Assembly (NCBI GenBank): GCA_951406725.2
Contig: OX597829.1
Location: 14,694,001 to 14,758,000 of the forward strand
DNA length: 64,000 nt
DNA from: Octopus vulgaris
Taxonomy: Eukaryota
Direction of reading: 5' to 3'
The notes below the pieces were generated by a model that was not told the origin of the DNA, did no database searches, and saw only the letters and a program-made list of their open reading frames with translations. How positions within the stretch are numbered: position 1 is the first letter of the stretch; each line of letters opens with the position of its first letter. Of this stretch, positions 8,216-61,894 are shown one piece after another. Both the position numbers and the translations under genes were made by a program.

Positions 8216-8581
8216 TCCACCCCTTGCTAGTTGCATAATCAGCAACCACAAACCTAATATACCCACAACCCACACCCCTGCCATCAACACCAACACCACC
8301 AGCAGTAACAACAATAACAAAACAACAACAAACTTCGCCGAGGCGATAAAAGAAAAAAAACAATAGTATCGTTTACTGCACAGCAGATAAAAGACTCCAG
8401 AGCCCTAATCACCAAAGAAAACGGCAAAGTACAATTACACATACCACAGCACATACTGAATGAGGAAAAAAAGAAAACGATTATTTATAAAATAACAAAC
8501 AACACAACTAAAAGTCCAGGAAAAGCAAGCACGGACAAAATAGAAAAGTGCCTACGCCCCATCTGGGGATACAAGGAGTAT

Positions 8582-9823
8582 GTGACCTGGTCGAACAAGT
8601 TTGCCCACGTACACGTGGTTTTTCAGAATGAAGAGTTGGCAAAGCAATTCTCAACGCTAACTCTTCATTCAGATGAGCTAACAATGACACCCAGTTACCT
8701 TGGCCAGAAGGTGACAAAGGTCATTATCAATAATGTCCCGCAAATAACAACCACACTATGGATAACATCCGCCATATGCGTCGAAATGGAGGACATAAAC
8801 ATCCTGGAAATCACTGTTTCGAAACACAAGGACTGGGTGGGAAAGAGAATGGAGATTCTCTTTCACATAAGCCAAGACGACATTAACAAAATTCCCACCC
8901 ACGTACATCTTGCGGATGACCGCAAGTTGTATGTAGTAGTCGAGGGCAGAAGGCCACGCTGCTATACATGCGGCAATGAAACACACCACAAAAAGGAGTG
9001 CAAATCTAACGCGAAACAACAACAACAACAACAGCCACGGGAAAAACCACAAAAGCCAACATTATTGCCCACACCACAGTATGGACGGCTAATCAAGAAG
9101 CTATATTCAGAAATGCACGAAAAGCAACAAAGAACGGACCAACCCAACCAAACAACACCACCACCTGCGCCAAGACCAGAACCATCACCACCAACAACTA
9201 AACCAATTCCAACACCGAGAACAACAACGAAGAAGACAAGCACCAAGGATGTAGGAGAGACAGTCACCACACCAAACCCCCCCGCACCCCACCCCCGCAC
9301 ACCACAACAATATCTACAACCGCACAAACAGACCCAGATGCTTTACCCTTGCCCCCGTGTGATTCGTCAGACTTTTCATCTAACGATGAAAGTTCGACAG
9401 AATGGCAAATAGCCACCGGGGGTAAAAGAAAAAGATTTTTAAAATAACAAACAAGAAAACGCAACCAAAGCAGGGAGATATCTGAACCCTGAAAGCTTCA
9501 TACACAACCAAACAAGTACCAACACCACAAAAACACACACAATGCTATCAGCGATAGACACCAAAAACTCCAAACTAATGGAGTACATCACAGCCCACAC
9601 AAACATCTGTGAAGATGACTTCAAAACTAACAACCATCCACGCACTACACTACCCAAACACAAAATACTACACATCACACAAACACAACACCACACACTC
9701 AAAGCCTTCTTTCCAAATGCGGTTGGGGAGTTCCAAAAATACCTTTCACAACAACTCTATAAAAACCTCCTCCAAGACACATCAAAGGATGAGGAAGCCA
9801 GAACTTTCGACACAAGTAAGTAA
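8582..9823 (+). pseudogene. LINE ORF1 (gag-like), frameshifted
   Basis: VVVEGRRPRCYTCGNETHHKKEC = CX2CX4HX4C knuckle; Pro/Thr-rich linker; continues in 9542-9823. Confidence 0.8.
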
Positions 9824-9869
9824 CTCTCTGTACCTTCCTTTTTGTGTTTTAAAGCACACACCCCAATAG

Positions 9870-12800
9870 AATCAAGGTCAAGATTGGTTGTGTGAATGCG
9901 CGTGGCTTGGGGTCTCCTAGGAAACAAGGATACCTCCTAAATGACATCAAGTCACACGATTTGGGAATCATAGCCATAAGTGAGACCAGACTCCACGAGC
10001 CACGGGCCCTAAAGTCCATGTTTGGCGGACAGTTTACCATTTATTTTGCTCCCTGTCTGCCGAGGATGGGCGGTAGTGGCACCGCGGTACTTTTTCACAA
10101 GAGCCTGGATCTCGAAGTCAAGACGGTATTCGTAGACCCGGAGGGTAGACTGGTCGTTCTGGATGTCGACGGCAGCAATGGGTGCGCTTTTCGACTCCTT
10201 TCAATCTACGCACCGCCTTTAACAGGTCGGCCGGATTTCTTTCGATGTCTAGAAGTATTCCTGAGAACGTCTCGTCCTTTACTTTCAGTGGGGGTTGGAA
10301 TGCTACCTTGGACATGCATCTAGACTATGTGGGGTAGACAAAAACAGAAGGGGATGCAAATGCCACAGAGACCTGCTCAGACGATTCCAACTGTCTGACA
10401 GGTACCGACTCGACCACCCAAATGCACCAACGTGGATATGGAGCAACCGCAGTGGGTTTTCGAGATCGTATCTAGATAGGATACTGTGTAGGACAGTAGA
10501 CAGGGATAACTTAGGATGTCCACAATTCCACACAGTCAGCTACACGGATCACAAATTCGTGACATGTACGCTAGACTTAGATAAGGCAAATAGACAGGGT
10601 CCTGGTTACTGGAAACTGAACGCATCTTTCCCGTCCAGACAGGTTTTCAGAGACAGAATCAACACGTTAGTAAAAAGGGCTTTAACGGGAGCCATTGTCA
10701 ACAACAAATTGTGGTTCGCTCTCAAGAGAGCAGTAAAAGCGGAAGCAATTAGATATAGCAAGGCACTAGCCGTAGATAGAAATAGAGTAGAGGGTGAGTT
10801 AGTTAAGAAGTTAGAAGAGGCAATTAGAAGCGGCATCGCATCCGACGTTTTAGCGGTGAGGTTCGCCCTTGACCAACATTTCAACGCCAAACACGAAGGG
10901 TGTGCTGTCAGGGCTAGGATGCGTGCTCTAAGGATGGAAGGTGTTGGAGCCGCGAGGGAGGCCCGGGTGGCGGAGGCGCAGCAGGGCAACAAAGCCACCA
11001 TTCGGTCTCTGGTAGATGAACAAGGGTGCGAATTGCTCGAGCCCAGCAAGATGTGCGAGACATTTCAACGGCACTTTGCACGACTGTACGGGACGAGTGG
11101 TGAGCGTGAACGCAGGGTGGACTTCAGTGCCTACCTGCACAGCCTACTACGACTCTCGGCAAGAGAGGCAGAGTGCTGCGAAGGTGCCATCACGGCGGCG
11201 GATGTGCGGGACGCGATGGCAGAATGCTCGAGAGACAAATCACCGGGTTTGGATGGTCTGCCCTGCGAGTTTTACAATTGTATGCCAGACTTGTTTGGAG
11301 ACGTTTTGGCTGCGGTATACTGCAACTGGCAGCAAGACGGGAGCATACCCGGTTTTGTGGGTCCAGGAGCCGTAACGCTGCTGAAGAAAGATCCAAACAA
11401 GGGGAACATTATAGATAACTTTACACCAATCACTCTGCTCAATGCAGACCTGAAAATTTTGACAAAGGTGTTAGCCAAGAGGTTGGCGCTTGTCGTCGAG
11501 ATATTGGTCGACAACACACAAACGTGCGCCGTGCCGGGCCGGAGCATCCATGACAACCTCCATCTGGTGCGCTACATCATAGACAGAGTAGTTAAGGAAC
11601 CCGGCATGGATCAATCGAAAGCCTTCGATAGGTTAGACCATCGATACTTGGAGGCAGTCCTGAGAGCGGCTGGTTTCGGTCCCGTCTTCCGCGGCTGGAT
11701 AGCTTCCTTGTACAGAGGCATCTGTCCGGTAATTCGCGTAAATGGACATCTACCGAGACCTTTCGACATTGCACGTTCCGTCCGTCAAGGATGCCCCCTC
11801 TCAGCGCTTCTATACGTATTGACTCTTGAGCCACTACTGCGGAAGCTGGCGACTCTGAGGGGCATCTCGCGAGAATTGGGATGCGGGACGAGCGTGTCTG
11901 CATACGCGGACCACGTCACCGTCATAGTGTCAAGCCACGAGTACATCGAGCTGGTCGGTGAGACACTGAAAGACTACGAAGCGGTGACAGGAGCAAAAAT
12001 CAACCGGGAAAAGTCAGTGGGCTTGCGACTCGGCACCTGGAGAAGCAAGCCCATGCCGTCCACAGTACCTCCGTCATGGGACGCTGGACAGACGTCCCGG
12101 TTGAGTTGCTCGGGGTCTGGTTCGGTCCGGACCTTCAAATGGAGAAGAACTGGAACGAGATAAAGAGTAGGGTGGTCACTTTCGCCCGGCAATGGGCCGA
12201 GAGGAAACTGTCCCTAAAAGGTCGGGCGGAGGTGGCGAACACGTACATCGCGTCCATCGTCTACTACCGCCTGACCGTCGTACCTTGTCCCGACCCTTCC
12301 ATCGCCAAACTAGAACGCATTCTCTTCCGCTTCTTGTGGAAAGGATGTGTCCCGATGGTCAGGCGATCCATTTGCTGTCAACACCCGTTAAAAGGAGGAC
12401 TGGGCATGCCGTGGTTGATGATGCGCAGACACGCGCTGAGACTGCGACATCTCAGGCTCTATGTAGACGACGGTGAACAGGTGTGGTCGCCGTTTGTGAG
12501 ACACGCGTTCCCGCAGCGCGTCTCCATGACCGAACTGCAGTCGTGGATCAATAAGAGGCCGAGGAAATGCGAATGGCGCCGCGAGTGTCGCGTTGCTCTC
12601 AAGCAACTCTGCCGTCCCGTGTCGACCTTGAGTGACTTCAATACAACCAAAGCATTCTATAGGGGATTAGTGGAGAGGAGGTACGACGACGATCTTGGGG
12701 CAAACCTGGGCGTCGACGAGGAATACCTGACCCGCCTGTTTGAAACGACTTTCGGGCCGGGACCTATGGACAACTTCCAGAGATCCCTGGCCTGGCGGTG

Positions 12801-13230
12801 CTACCGAGAAGCGCTACCCGTTCGGGATAAGCTCTATAGGCATGGCTCGAGAAACACGGGGCCGACCTGCCCGAGATGTGGGCAGAGCGACGAAACCGCT
12901 CTGCACGCAATCGTGCAGTGTCCAACAATCTCCGACCTGTGGGCTTATGTCGAACGACTGCTGTCACGTGTGGGACGTGTCGGTTTATCAGCCGAGTCTA
13001 TCGTTAATATCGTCACGCCTCCTTCCTTCAAACGGGAACGAAGAGCTATTTTTATCATACTTGTGGCTATGGCGAAAGAATGTATCTGGTGGACGCGCCT
13101 GAAAGGATTAGAGACAAACACTTTCCTCTCTGGTCAATCTCTCATCAACTTCTTCAAGTATCACTTGAAGAGGAAAGTGAGAGTAGAGAGGCAAGTTTTG
13201 TCTAGTGAATGTTTTAAAAAAGATGGGTGA
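9870..13230 (+). pseudogene. LINE ORF2 (APE endonuclease, RT, C-terminal zinc finger), frameshifted near 10295 and 12070
   Basis: NARGL, SETR, IYAP, YLDRI, YTDH, GYWKLN, KSPGLDG, KAFD, RQGCPLS, YADH (dead YADD), CPRC..H....C; lacks 24 nt (GGALINL region) present in the second copy. Confidence 0.93.
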
Positions 13231-13702
13231 ATGTAGCAAAGATGGCACGTATGAATGACGAAGACACCTTGACTATGATTCTATGAACCGTAAAAATTAG
13301 TACAGAGAGTTGCTTATTTGCAAAAAAAAAAAAAAGAAATATAACATGTGACCGAGGTTACCGTGGTCTTTTCCGTAGGCTTTTCTTTCCACGGGTAAAC
13401 CTCACCTGTCATCCCCTTTACACTTCATATTGACATTTCTCTGATAGCGATCCCTATTGATCAATTTTTTCCTTTCCCTTCCCCTACCTTTTAAAAAAAA
13501 ATGTTATCCCCCCCTTTTTTGTCCTCTTTCTTTCCTTTTACGATCCCTTTTGATTGAAAACCAAACCCCCTTTTTTTACCCCCAAAAGAAAAGCTCTACC
13601 TTGTAATTTGTCTTGTCTGTGTGCAGCCCTGTGTGGCTAATAAAGAAACATATCCATCTATCTATCTAACTGTCTGTCTGTCTGTCTGAACTCTCACTTT
13701 AT

Positions 13703-24854: not shown

Positions 24855-25311
24855 AGGATCAATAATGTATTCATATAATATATAATATCTAGATGTGGAT
24901 GTGTGGTTAAGAATCTGGGCTTGTTTCTCGACTGAGTGAACTTGGGTATGGTGCCATGTAGTACTTTCTACTATAACCCCATGCTGACCATGGCACGGAC
25001 GTGGGGTTGTGGTAACAAGCTCACTTCCTAACCATGTTGTCGTATATTCAGCTACATTGCGTGGCTCTCTTTGAGCAAGTGCTTGCTACTGGAGCCACGT
25101 GCTGACCACTAGGACTTGTAAGTGGATTTCGTGGACGGAAGCTAAAGGAAGCTGTCTTTTTATCTTTTATCTATTAGTGTGCCCATGCTGGGGCACCAGT
25201 TTGAAGGGCTTAATCGAACAGATCACCCACAGTTCCTATTTTCTAAGTTTCATACTTGTTGGTTCGGTGTCTGTTGCCGAACCGCTAATGTAACAGTGAT
25301 GTAAACTAACC
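24345..25311. mobile_element. Cluster of old CORE-SINE copies in both orientations
   Basis: GCGGCCATGCTGGAGCACC tails, CORE motifs, tRNA heads. Confidence 0.7.
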
Positions 25312-25465
25312 TATTTCTTTACCACCCACAAGGGGCTAAACACAGAGGGGACAAACAAGGACGGACAAACGGATTAAGCCGGTTATATTGACCCCAGTGC
25401 GTAACTGGTACTTATTTAATCGACCCCGAAAGGATGGAAGGCAAAGTCGACCTCGGCGGAATTTG
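25312..25465 (-). mobile_element. 5'-truncated Meta-domain SINE fused to a Tx1-like LINE fragment
   Basis: Meta core and tail; begins inside the B-box directly after LINE sequence. Confidence 0.9.
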
Positions 25466-26789
25466 CAAATGGATCGCTTGACCATCGGGACGCATCCTTT
25501 CCACAAGAAGCGGAAGAGAATGCGTTCTAGTTTGGTGATGGTAGGGTCGGGACAAGGTACGACGGTCAGGCGGTAGTAGATGATGGACGCGATGTACGTA
25601 TTCGCCACCTCCGCCCGACCTTTTAGGGACAGTTTCCTCTCGGCCCATTGCTGGGCGAGAGTGACCACCCTACTCGTTATCTCGTTCCAGTTCTTCTCCA
25701 TTTGAAGGTCCGGACCAAACCAGACCCCGAGCAACTCAACCGGGCCGTACGTCCAGCGTCCCACGACGGAGGTACTGGTGGACGACAGGGGCTCAATTCT
25801 CCAGGTGCCGAGCCGCAAGCCCACTGACTTTTCCCGGTTGATTTTTACTCCTATCACCGCTTCATAGTCTAACAGTGTCTCGCCGATCAGCTCGATGTGC
25901 TCGCGGCTTGACACTATGACGGTGACGCCGTCCGCGTATGCAGACACGCTCGTCCCGCATCCCAATTCTCGCTGGATGTCCTTCAGAGTCGCCAGCTTCC
26001 GCAGTAGTGGCTCAAGAGTCAATACGTATAGAAGCACCGAGAGGGGACATCCCTGACGGACCGAACGTGCAATGTCGAAATGTCTCGATAGATGTCCATT
26101 TACGCGAATTACCGAACGGATGCCTCTGTACAAGGCAGCTATCCAGCCGCGGAAGACGGGACCGAAACCAGCCGCTCTCAGGACTGCCTCCAAGTATCGA
26201 TGGTCTACTCTATCGAAGGCTTTCGATTGATCCAAGTTGATCAGGGCCCCACCTATGCCAGGTTCCTTAACTACTCTATCTATGATGTAGCGCATCAGAT
26301 GGAGGTTGTCATGGATGCTCCGGCCCGACACGGCGCACGTTTGTGCGTTGTCGACCAGTTTCTCGATGACAAGCGCCAACCTCTTGGCTAACACCTTTGT
26401 CAAAATTTTCAGGTCTGCATTGAGCAGAGTGATTGATGTAAAGTTATCTATAATGTTCCCCTTGTTTGGATCTTTCTTCAGCAGCTTTACGGCTCCTCGA
26501 CTCACAAAACCGGGTATGCTCCCGTTTTGCTGCCAGTTGCAGTATACCGCTGCCAAGACGTCTCCAAACAAGTGTGGCATACAATTGTAAAACTCGTAGG
26601 GCAGACCATCCAAACCCGGCGATTTGTCCCTAGAGCATTCTGCCATCACGTTCCGCCCATCCGTCGCCGTGATGGCACCTTCGCAGCACTCTGCCTCTCT
26701 TGCCGAGAGTCGTGGTAGGCTGTGCAGTTAAGCACTGAAGTCCACCCTGCGTTCACGCTCGCCACTCGTCCCGTACAGTCGGGCAATGT
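25466..26789 (-). pseudogene. Second Tx1-like LINE fragment (RT domain)
   Basis: Near-identical to about 11075-12375; GGALINLDQSKAFD, RQGCPLS, YADG; 5' end abuts (TATC)n. Confidence 0.95.
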
Positions 26790-27904: not shown

Positions 27905-28175
27905 GCCTATCGTCTCTATACAAATGAGATTATCAGGACGTTGTCTCTGTACTCATCAAGCTGTCAACCCATCATCTCTGTACGCTCCAAACTGTCAGAA
28001 AAGCTTTTCTGTACACTTTAAATTGACAGTCCATTTCTTTTGGTAAACTTCAAATTGTCAGACTATCTCATCTGTACACAGGAAATTATTTGCCCATCAT
28101 CTCTGTATTCTTGAAATTATCAGACAATCGTTTCTGCGCACTTCAAATTGTCATTACCTCTCCTCTGTACTTACC
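27905..28175. repeat. Degenerate ~31-bp minisatellite (about 8 units)
   Basis: Recurrent TCTGTACAC-TTCAAATTGTCA with variable middles. Confidence 0.75.
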
Positions 28176-28775
28176 TATTTCTTTACTACCCACAAGGGGA
28201 CAAACACAGAGAGGACAAACAAGGACAGACAAACGGATTAAGTCGATAATATCGATCCCCAGTGCGCAACTGGTACTTATTTAATCGACCCTGAAAGGAT
28301 GAAAGGCAAAGTCGACCTCGGCGGAATTTGAACGCAGAACGTAGCGCAGACGAAATATCTATTTCTTTACTACCCACAAGGGGCTAAACACCAAGAGGAC
28401 AGACAAGGGCAGGCAAACGGATTAAGTCGATTACATCGACTCCAGTGCGTAACAGGTACTTATTTAATCGACTCCGGAAGGATGAAAGGCAAAGTCGACC
28501 TCGGCGGAATTTGAACTCAGAACGTAACAGCAGACGAAATACCTATTTCTTTACTACCCACAAGGGGCTAAACACAGAAAGAACAAACAAGGACAGACAA
28601 ACGGATTAAGTCGATTACATCAACCCCAGTGCGTAATTGGTACCTATTTAATCTACCCCGAAAAGATGAAAGGCAAAGTCGACTTCGGCGGAATTTGAAC
28701 TCAGAACGTAGCGGCAGACCAAATACTGCTAAGCATTTCACCCAGCGTGTTAACGATTCTGCTGCCTCGCCGCCT
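28176..28775 (-). mobile_element. Head-to-tail trimer of the Meta-domain SINE within one TSD
   Basis: Units 28176-28359, 28360-28543, 28544-28775; TSD TCCTCTGTAC[T/A]TACC at 28161-28175 and 28776-28790. Confidence 0.92.
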
Positions 28776-29244
28776 TCCTCTGTACATACCACGCTGATGG
28801 AAGAAAAGAAATTAGCTGTGTAATTCTTCAAGGTGATTTTAAAGTGTTGCATGTTGGGACGATTTACATCTTCGCCTATTTTGCGGTTGTTACTTGGTCC
28901 TTGATTTAATATTTGTATGTTTTGCGATCTTAGTTATCTTATAACATAATCCAGTAACCAGTCTCATAGAGTAAAATGAGATGCCGGATTGTTCAGTGTA
29001 CTAGAAATTTATTACTTCGTGCACGCAACTACAGGCACAGGCGAAGAGAAATTTCGTTTTAAATCACGTAAGTGCCCTATATGTATAAGCACGTCGGACA
29101 CTAACACACACTCACAATTAATAAAGAAAAAAAAAAGTAAAATACAAAGTATTAGGCGTGCTTCTGTTGGTAAGAAGTTTGCTTTCTCATTGCAAGGTTC
29201 TCAGTTCAGTTCCACTGCTTGCTGACATGGACAACTGCTTTCTC

Positions 29245-36160: not shown

Positions 36161-36342
36161 TATTTAGGAAGGCATTTACACAGACACACATACGTACACA
36201 CACACTTATACAGAAACGCATTACTAACCAAAGGGGTATTAACGTATGTAGGAAATAACGTTAAGCTATGAGTGGGAAAGCCCCACCCAGAAGTGGGCTA
36301 ATAAAAATTTTATCCAGCCACCCACCTACCTACCTACCTACC

Positions 36343-36568
36343 TATTTCTTTGCACAAGATGCTAAATATAGAGGGGAAAAAAGGACAGACAAACGGATTG
36401 AGTCGATTATATCGACCCCAGTGCGTAACTGGTACTTAATTTATCGACCCTGAAAGGATGAAAGGCAAAGTCGAACTCGGTGGAATTTGAAACCAGAACG
36501 TAACGGCAGACGAAATCCGGCTACAGCATTTCGCCCGGCGTGCTAACGATTCTGCCAGCGCGCCGCCA
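36343..36568 (-). mobile_element. Meta-domain SINE inserted in (CCTA)n
   Basis: Head, core and tail present; CCTA repeats on both sides. Confidence 0.9.
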
Positions 36569-47049: not shown

Positions 47050-47660
47050 TTGTTCACACTTATTCTCAAAATATTATTCTTCAAGAAATGCTGAACGAGT
47101 AAAGGAGACCCAATGGAACTTTTCTCTTCTAATAGAAATTGGGTTTGGTTTTGAAATCTCTTTGCTTACATAGACCAGTACAACTGCTCTCCATTTATAA
47201 ATGCTATGTTTAATCAACCTGGTTGCTTTTGGAGATATATATTACTCGTAGCTAATGTTTCCAGAATCCATGTGTGGCCAACACTATCAAAAGGACTTCT
47301 GGCTATAAATTCAAACCAATCCAAGTCTCTACTGTTAGCGCTCTGAAGATCACAAACCGATATTTACAACCATATCACTCTTTTTAAGAACCATTTTCCG
47401 ATGGATTTTTTTCCTGACTGGTCTTTATGGTTTCCTATAATAACATCGCTAAGATATTACAGGACACGGATCTGTAGTTTTTTGTGGTTTGATATTCTGC
47501 CAGTCTTTCGGACTAAAATGGGTTTTTCTTTTGGAGAGTAATTTTATTGTTATTTCGAATTCTTTTAGTAAATGGTTGAATATCTCTAAAAGAAATTTGT
47601 CGGCATTTGCCAAATATTTCACTCAAAAGTCTGGAACATGCTCCGATTGTTCGTATCCTG
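47050..47660 (-). pseudogene. Degenerate RLE-LINE RT fragment
   Basis: PFDSVGHTWILETL...PISIRR motifs with stops. Confidence 0.6.
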
Positions 47661-47667
47661 TAGATTC

Positions 47668-48005
47668 TGCTTAGCGATATTTCGTCTGTCTTTACCTTTT
47701 GAGTTCAAATTCTACCGAGGTCGACTTTACCTTTCATCCTTTCGGGGTCTATAAATTAAGTACCAGTTGCTTACTGGGATCGATCTAATCGACTGGCCCC
47801 ATCCCTCAAAACTTCTGGCTTTGTGCCTAGAGTAGAAAAGGATATATCGTCTCGCTCTTAACGTTCTGAGTTCAAATTATGCCGAGGTCAGCTTCAATTA
47901 TAATTTTTTTTCAGGCTCGATAAAATAAATACCACTCAAGAACTTGGATCTATGTAATTTACTTACCCCTCACCTAAAAAAAACTGGTGGCTCTATGTCC
48001 TTATT
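47668..48005 (+). mobile_element. Meta-SINE dimer (alternative tail)
   Basis: Second unit starts at 47841 GATATATCGTCT directly after the first tail. Confidence 0.8.
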
Positions 48006-61447: not shown

Positions 61448-61830
61448 GACAGAAGTAAGTAGACACCCTGATACTCACTAAAATTACTTTAAATCTGAAA
61501 TTATACATTCAAATTATTTATTAATTGTTATGATGCGAATATTCTCTTGCAAAATATCACGCCAAGTTTCATGAAGCAGTCTCAAAATATCTGGCTTTGA
61601 AGATGCTTTCTTCTTTTTATGAAGTGTCCTGTCCATTATATCACAGAGAGTTCAATAGGCTTCATATCTGGTGACAAGCTTGACCACGGAAACTTTTTAA
61701 TGCCATTCTCATCCAGAGAAATAAAGAGTCTTCGTTAATCATTTCACCATCAGAGAAGATTGGAAGTTATCCTTTCTGCAGTATGGAAAAAAAGAGGGAG
61801 GAAGAGATAGATATATGCATTTATACGTAT

Positions 61831-61894
61831 TGAACTCAGAACGTAGCGGCAGACGAAATACCCGGCCTGCTAACGTTTCTGCCAGCTCGCCGCC
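61831..61894 (-). mobile_element. Meta-SINE head with internal deletion at the hairpin
   Basis: GACGAAATA joins CCCGGC, missing CCGCTAAGCATTTCG. Confidence 0.75.

Follow-up and report, generated by a model that had tools for sequence, protein, structure and literature searches.

Why does a SINE of the octopus genome restart, copy after copy, at one and the same base of its own head? The question was raised by a trimeric SINE in a 64,000-nucleotide stretch of Octopus vulgaris DNA (hereafter the window), for which the initial annotation had proposed either cleavage of the SINE RNA in a hairpin loop or targeted self-insertion. Base numbers below refer to a 233-nt consensus that we built from 208 copies. 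The trimer consists of the following parts.

28161 to 28175, no strand: TSD copy adjoining the array on its 3' side; read on the element strand, its GGTA start lies right behind the tail
28176 to 28359, reverse strand: unit 3, consensus bases 50-233, with a long tail of the T allele
28360 to 28543, reverse strand: unit 2, consensus bases 50-233
28543/28544 and 28359/28360, reverse strand: the two junctions from a tail to base 50
28544 to 28775, reverse strand: unit 1, a SINE complete from tRNA-like head through central domain to long tail; A-box-like and B-box-like motifs seen by eye
28715 to 28744, reverse strand: head hairpin, consensus bases 33-62
28721 to 28727, reverse strand: target motif (consensus bases 50-56), mutated in unit 1
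28776 to 28790, no strand: TSD copy adjoining the head

The architecture described in the initial annotation held up. The trimer lies inside a single 15-bp TSD (28161-28175 and 28776-28790, one mismatch), and the two 184-bp units have a common start, each beginning at consensus base 50. The head hairpin has a stem of bases 33-45 and 50-62 around a 4-nt loop at bases 46-49 (z -3.6), with base 50 at the 3' edge of that loop, and the inverted repeat at the junction is present, with a length of 6 bp. When divergence within the array was compared with that between copies, as the annotation had suggested, the three units proved no closer to one another than random pairs (9.9-11.3% versus 10.2%), and they had no private changes in common. 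A single circular template is thus disfavoured here. Because the window TSD begins with GGTA, unit 3 represents an ordinary T-allele end in unique DNA. The trimer as a whole is compatible with two later insertions or with one-step copying of an already mixed multimer. In sequencing reads, contigs of organisms B and C run from the flank into the window element, at a resolution that leaves the number of units unreadable.

The SINE family and its tails

The element is a short, non-coding, dispersed and high-copy SINE flanked by TSDs that begin immediately behind its tail; 143,952 exact long-tail ends occur genome-wide. Pol III A-box-like and B-box-like motifs can be seen in the head by eye, and searches of the SINE with ARAGORN and Rfam returned no tRNA gene and no match at E 1, respectively. 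We distinguished at least four families that have a common head and centre but different tails, namely the young long-tail family (LT) and the older families B, C and D. Their core divergences are about 0.04, 0.11, 0.11 and 0.16, and each tail family has its own TSD-start motif.

We take the SINE to resemble the tRNA-derived SINEs of octopus, among which OR1 and OR2 were reportedly described by Ohshima and Okada in 1994; a tRNA-like head and centre common to families with different tails is presumably an OR1/OR2-like trait. OR1 and OR2 are named as CORE-SINEs in the consulted parts of two papers (PMC4758252, PMC4824008). Head-only fragments also occur in tandem, with periods of 117, 121 and 55 bp and with each fragment restarting at base 1 (loci L286-L288; G000:C11:81438136-81438664; G000:C4:19472626-19472931).

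A fixed junction at head base 50

The genome-wide junction census suggested by the initial annotation revealed a fixed rather than a scattered breakpoint: GGTATTT, the motif at head base 50, recurred directly after 50,005 of the 143,952 exact LT tail ends. The exact 25-mer across the junction had 26,139 matches in the genome compared with 0 for its reversed control, far beyond chance. In 80 unselected 10-kb stretches (800 kb), we found 47 tail ends, of which 20 led to base 50, 4 to base 17-20 and 23 to non-SINE DNA. The junction follows about 35-43% of LT tail ends. A junction search with a free gap gave 22,840 long-tail matches; all of the first 100 listed resumed at one base, 4 of them after one additional tail repeat. 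By contrast, the family B tail followed by the B-box gave 39 genome matches, with varied junctions. One tail family (LT) stands upstream of the junction and other tails almost never do, whereas the downstream units come from several older families.

The initial annotation had placed the same breakpoint at two other positions in the window.

47660 to 47980, forward strand: dimer of short-tail family B whose second unit resumes at base 52 (47842); a rare class
61830 to 61894, reverse strand: head fragment that reaches base 82; the 15-bp deletion in it ends at base 49-51

For the dimer at 47841, the neighbourhood of the breakpoint stood but the exact base did not: the second unit resumes at base 52, and the dimer is one of the 39 genome matches with varied junctions. 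In 7 loci examined, the window's included, the second unit of family B resumes at base 52, and at this base the end of the family B tail itself matches the target. The deletion near 61860 does end at the expected place, but it lies between short GG repeats and is one of 153 head deletions with varied ends, so that it points only faintly to a common breakpoint. Among the first 50 listed of these 153 deletions, 23 resumed at bases 48-52, as judged by eye. These small deletions, whose left ends vary, may be scars left where insertions at the same nick failed.

Proposed mechanism

We consider it probable (roughly 0.7) that young LT SINEs join base 50 of related heads through LINE-driven TPRT at GGTATTT, likely replacing the resident head. 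A Tx1/L1-type enzyme would nick the bottom strand between bases 49 and 50, and TPRT would start at GGTATTT inside a resident SINE copy. The 5' end of the new cDNA would then anneal in register to the host head, as proposed for Drosophila R1A, and replace it; a read-through RNA carrying the target sequence may assist. Each event would add exactly 184 bp and leave a fresh target, so that repeated events would yield dimers and trimers. Targeted self-insertion with homology-driven 5' joining, as the initial annotation had put it, is supported by the fixed 3' junction, the motif in unique DNA, the host-derived stubs and the young heads on old bodies with old outer TSDs.

Arrays combine old bodies with young heads

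We collected 146 arrays, comprising 128 picked by their junctions on C1, 16 unselected arrays and 2 in or beside the window; the majority lie in the first 11.5 Mb of C1, having been chosen by junction patterns. One junction was present in 96 arrays, two in 38 and more in 12. In 56 arrays the tail of the last unit belonged to family B, C or D and in 71 to LT, while in 19 no tail was recognised. Last units had a core divergence of 0.085 and first units one of 0.043 (n = 123, P = 3e-10), a gap that narrowed with own-family consensuses (0.087 versus 0.066; 32/38). Last B units were somewhat less diverged than solo B copies (0.087 versus 0.110, P = 0.02).

The heads of these arrays followed another pattern. 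Head divergence tracked neither unit strongly (rho 0.18 and 0.05), and LT-like heads were found on 41 of 51 old bodies, compared with 57 of 65 solo LT copies and 21 of 72 solo old copies. Over bases 16-49, the heads of arrays ending in family B gave P = 0.52 against solo LT copies and P = 2e-4 against solo B copies; head bases 5-15 do not discriminate. A marker head allele was present in 26/65 solo LT copies, 11/37 heads of B-ended arrays and 0/27 solo B copies. By these measures, arrays that end in a family B unit carry young heads.

The outer TSDs, on the other hand, looked old. By a crude test (best 12-mer) on small samples, with simple-repeat flanks left out, a perfect 12-mer TSD was present in 2 of 27 arrays with an old last unit and in 2 of 43 solo old copies, versus 18 of 44 solo LT copies (P = 0.0025 against the arrays); among old-last arrays with young heads only, the count was 1 of 20 (P = 0.003). 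Taken together, a young head, an old body and an old outer TSD indicate that the old copy stayed in place, had its head exchanged and gained 184 bp. We found no empty or pre-insertion allele in contigs of other organisms, and the order of events is accordingly read from divergence. At one locus (L187), a contig of organism E with 29 differences in about 370 nt reaches ~30 nt into the tail of the old host, while the insert is free of private changes from base 46 to base 233; we give this little weight, as a single locus is concerned, no contig spans it and the contig may be a paralogue.

The same arrays could in principle have arisen by co-insertion, that is, from a few junction origins whose mixed dimers or multimers were copied whole, through read-through or through template switching between old RNA and LT RNA. 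Co-insertion predicts young heads, as seen, and it fits LT-ended arrays with a young TSD, the window trimer included. Most last units are back in host sequence by base 63-66, and LT alleles at bases 63 and 65 were present in about 16 of 51 old-type last units versus 7-8 of 72 solo copies, a hint that some RNAs extend beyond the junction, as co-insertion would allow. However, arrays with an old last unit have old TSDs (2/27 perfect), like solo old copies (2/43). Nor do last B units cluster around a few sources: at least four changes were common to 9 of 1,485 pairs, versus 11 of 351 solo pairs. Co-insertion also leaves two-head copies with host-derived stubs unexplained, and we regard it as unlikely.

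Sequential insertion does not account for every array either. Adjacent units had at least two private changes in common in 16 of 52 arrays, compared with 2% of random pairs, which sequential insertion does not explain; local duplication thus also acts. Two arrays, with 10 and 6 junctions (L170 and L163, respectively), consist of near-identical units with a family B unit last. A minority of arrays, mainly long ones, were extended by local duplication. We regard L170 and L163 as incipient SINE-derived satellites.

Two-head copies and the probable replacement of the resident head

Genome-wide, 160 full-length copies lie behind a head stub. At 26 usable loci, this stub, 8-20 nt in length, agreed with the downstream host at 13, with the insert at 3 and with neither at 10 (P = 0.021). 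These loci remained from 30 that were fetched, after we had dropped one duplicate, one without a tail and two without a junction; bases fixed by the search pattern were excluded. A control anchor gave 56 matches to a head fragment plus a full copy, so such shapes also occur without nesting; none of the 10 control loci that we read was nested at that anchor, the script having failed to locate the tail in 6 of them. Two heads were kept in 4 of 123 arrays and one head in 119. A precise 5' junction is thus the main product, whereas a TSD accompanied by a duplication of upstream sequence is the minor one.

If a copy nested in the ordinary way, with a TSD, and the two adjacent heads later recombined so that one was deleted, a single head would also remain. 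Two-head copies do exist, and some one-head arrays, for example L187, keep a host-like head, as later collapse would allow. If crossovers were spread over the head, however, 110 mismatches would be expected over bases 16-49, whereas we observed 71 (P = 4e-5) and would expect 63 if all heads were insert-derived. Inserts in two-head arrays were also no younger than those in one-head arrays (0.034, n = 21, versus 0.038, n = 44; P = 0.51). These two results favour replacement at insertion. Crossovers might possibly have been confined to the extreme 5' end of the head, where bases 5-15 are uninformative; even so, we think later collapse quite improbable. The evidence for head replacement at insertion is a new point of the present analysis.

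The DNA target and its link to the tail allele

Where LT copies lie in unique DNA, their TSDs begin right behind the tail, and three classes of start motif can be told apart. Because the base-50 motif is also found at TSD starts in unique DNA, the junction reflects a DNA target. The motif differed with the tail allele: once 13 of 140 rows reaching into a short piece of SINE had been dropped, TSDs began with GGTAT in 33 of 67 copies with T tail alleles versus 2 of 43 with C tail alleles (P = 2e-7), and with AGAAA in 2 of 67 versus 13 of 43, respectively. C tail alleles have a fixed junction of their own at head base 17, with 1,084 genome matches (also L061-L090); the head agrees there with the tail repeat AGAAA. 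In the loci examined, which include loci picked for base 17, 42 C tail alleles were joined to base 17 versus 8 to base 50. The link between allele and target is incomplete, as C tail alleles also occur among the first 100 listed tail ends joined to GGTATTT. That target choice is linked to the tail allele is likewise a new point of this analysis.

GGTAT sites were used in 16 of 53 cases in SINE heads versus 5 of 1,174 elsewhere; with each array counted as a single insertion, this ratio may be too high. The GGTAT motif alone is insufficient for target choice. The window also holds an LT copy outside any SINE head.

36339 to 36567, reverse strand: solo long-tail copy in a (GGTA)n microsatellite, the same motif without the hairpin

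At GG-type unique targets, base 8 was C in only 7 of 43 cases, so the inverted repeat seen at the junction is dispensable there; it stems from one ancestral junction. In 23 unique-target loci, we found no asymmetry of the kind left by RNA-templated bases (3' TSD copies towards the motif, 5 versus 7). At another locus (L062), a long-tail copy lies at GGTAC on the opposite strand of the central domain of another SINE, where the motif was used without head homology. As to whether the enzyme or the RNA end determines the site, the allele link and the excess over the motif favour a part for the RNA, although the direct look for RNA-templated asymmetry was negative and different LINE partners could be an alternative source of the difference between the tail alleles.

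Cleavage of the SINE RNA in the hairpin loop, with reverse transcriptase then jumping between templates or circling a 184-nt RNA, could explain a junction exactly on the 3' edge of the loop, as well as the near-identical units of the 6- and 10-junction arrays, but we find it hardly credible, because 5' ends show no peak at the loop (8 at bases 46-55, 8 at 36-45 and 11 at 66-80 among 118 unselected copies with no long tail before them), other tails hardly precede the junction (39 matches for the family B tail versus 22,840 for the long tail), TSDs in unique DNA open with the base-50 motif as well, the fixed junction of C tail alleles at base 17 lies off the hairpin, and the units of the window trimer have no private change in common.

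Insertion of LT SINEs into resident heads also admits a more far-reaching interpretation, which is conceivable but which we hold to be doubtful. The SINE may be an RNA-programmed element that targets itself: site bases captured at the 3' end, together with the element's own head, would serve as homology arms with which new copies scarlessly overwrite the decayed promoters of old ones, and tail alleles would inherit their targets (base 50 versus base 17). An ancestor that landed in a sister head would have captured the site at its own 3' end.

Relation to known systems and implications

SINEU-3 of crocodilians, according to the consulted part of its description, is likewise a target-preferring SINE whose sequential insertions create tandem copies, and its preference was probably lent by a Tx1 LINE, Tx1-Mar (PMC4494074). 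The two elements differ in that the SINEU-3 target is a Mariner transposon, with a TSD between tandem copies, whereas the octopus SINE targets its own head and 119 of 123 arrays are without a second head or stub; moreover, the SINEU-3 head is derived from snRNA (PMC4494074), whereas that of the octopus SINE had no Rfam match. The same excerpt calls a SINE target-specific if more than 20% of its copies have a single kind of repeat beside them, at a fixed position (PMC4494074); the corresponding values here are 20 of 47 unselected tail ends and 50,005 of 143,952 genome-wide.

For Drosophila R1A elements of the melanogaster type, the portion of the source used here proposes transcripts that carry target sequence (PMC2718515). 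As in the octopus SINE, R1A has a fixed 3' junction, and its 5' side shows either of two outcomes, a precise annealed junction or a TSD plus a duplication of upstream sequence (PMC2718515). By contrast, R1 is described there as an autonomous LINE that inserts into 28S rDNA with a homology of 7-28 nt and a deletion of 9 bp (PMC2718515); the octopus element is a non-coding SINE, with ~50 nt of homology to a target that is itself, and the host head is apparently replaced.

Squamate SINE-derived satellites, as far as the relevant excerpt goes, also form dispersed tandem arrays of a SINE portion, and some of their units span the late head through the LINE-derived region (PMC10702118). They are described as having at least four units (PMC10702118), whereas 96 of our 146 arrays have one junction and the arrays mix families and ages. 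Homogeneity of the satellite type is absent in the window trimer and present in the 6- and 10-junction arrays. In the part consulted, the main text of a 2026 octopus repeat annotation contains neither 'nested' nor 'target' (PMC13282606). PMC7265360, as far as consulted, added nothing to this comparison. In the literature that we consulted, in part as excerpts, no SINE is reported to target and overwrite members of its own family; subscription papers, Repbase/Dfam or the supplements of PMC13282606 could hold one.

If targeted insertion with head replacement is true, a non-coding SINE uses dead relatives as safe landing sites and gives them a fresh Pol III head. It would also provide a high-copy natural case of homology-directed retrotransposon insertion, so far argued mainly from R1/R2 in rDNA. 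The roles of the endonuclease and the RNA end in target choice would become testable, since two tail alleles prefer different sites and can be swapped. In this genome, age landscapes of SINEs and markers based on their presence or absence would call for caution, as single loci mix young and old parts and insertions can recur at the same base. Were the RNA-programmed interpretation also true, this would be a natural, self-reinforcing, RNA-guided gene replacement at tens of thousands of loci.

A LINE relative in the window

The window contains one LINE whose tail resembles that of the SINE.

8318 to 13650, forward strand: frameshifted LINE with endonuclease, RT and zf-RVT

The 3' end of this LINE matches the SINE tail at 79% over 42 nt, a match also seen in other loci. 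The LINE lies in (TATC)n-type repeats and is thus a relative of the likely partner rather than the SINE-targeting LINE itself. We did not find the latter in the loci examined or with two tail patterns (40 matches, and 511 matches of which 6 were fetched), and no diverged LINE piece in the loci examined ended at base 50. All 6 fetched of the 511 matches end in point variants of the SINE tail.

In the LINE family with the SINE-like tail, (TATC)n or a similar microsatellite follows nearly every copy seen; the copies concerned are the window LINE (8318-13650) and those at L140, L149, L186, L187, L190, L192, L200, L208 and L266. Judged by these flanks, the family appears to be a microsatellite-targeting relative. 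Elsewhere in the window (25309-25880, reverse strand), a 5'-truncated long-tail SINE that starts from base 80 abuts LINE ORF2-like sequence. At L231 (1050-4900), C-terminal LINE fragments recur at a spacing of ~1.45 kb, one of them with a long-tail SINE in a GGTATT site.
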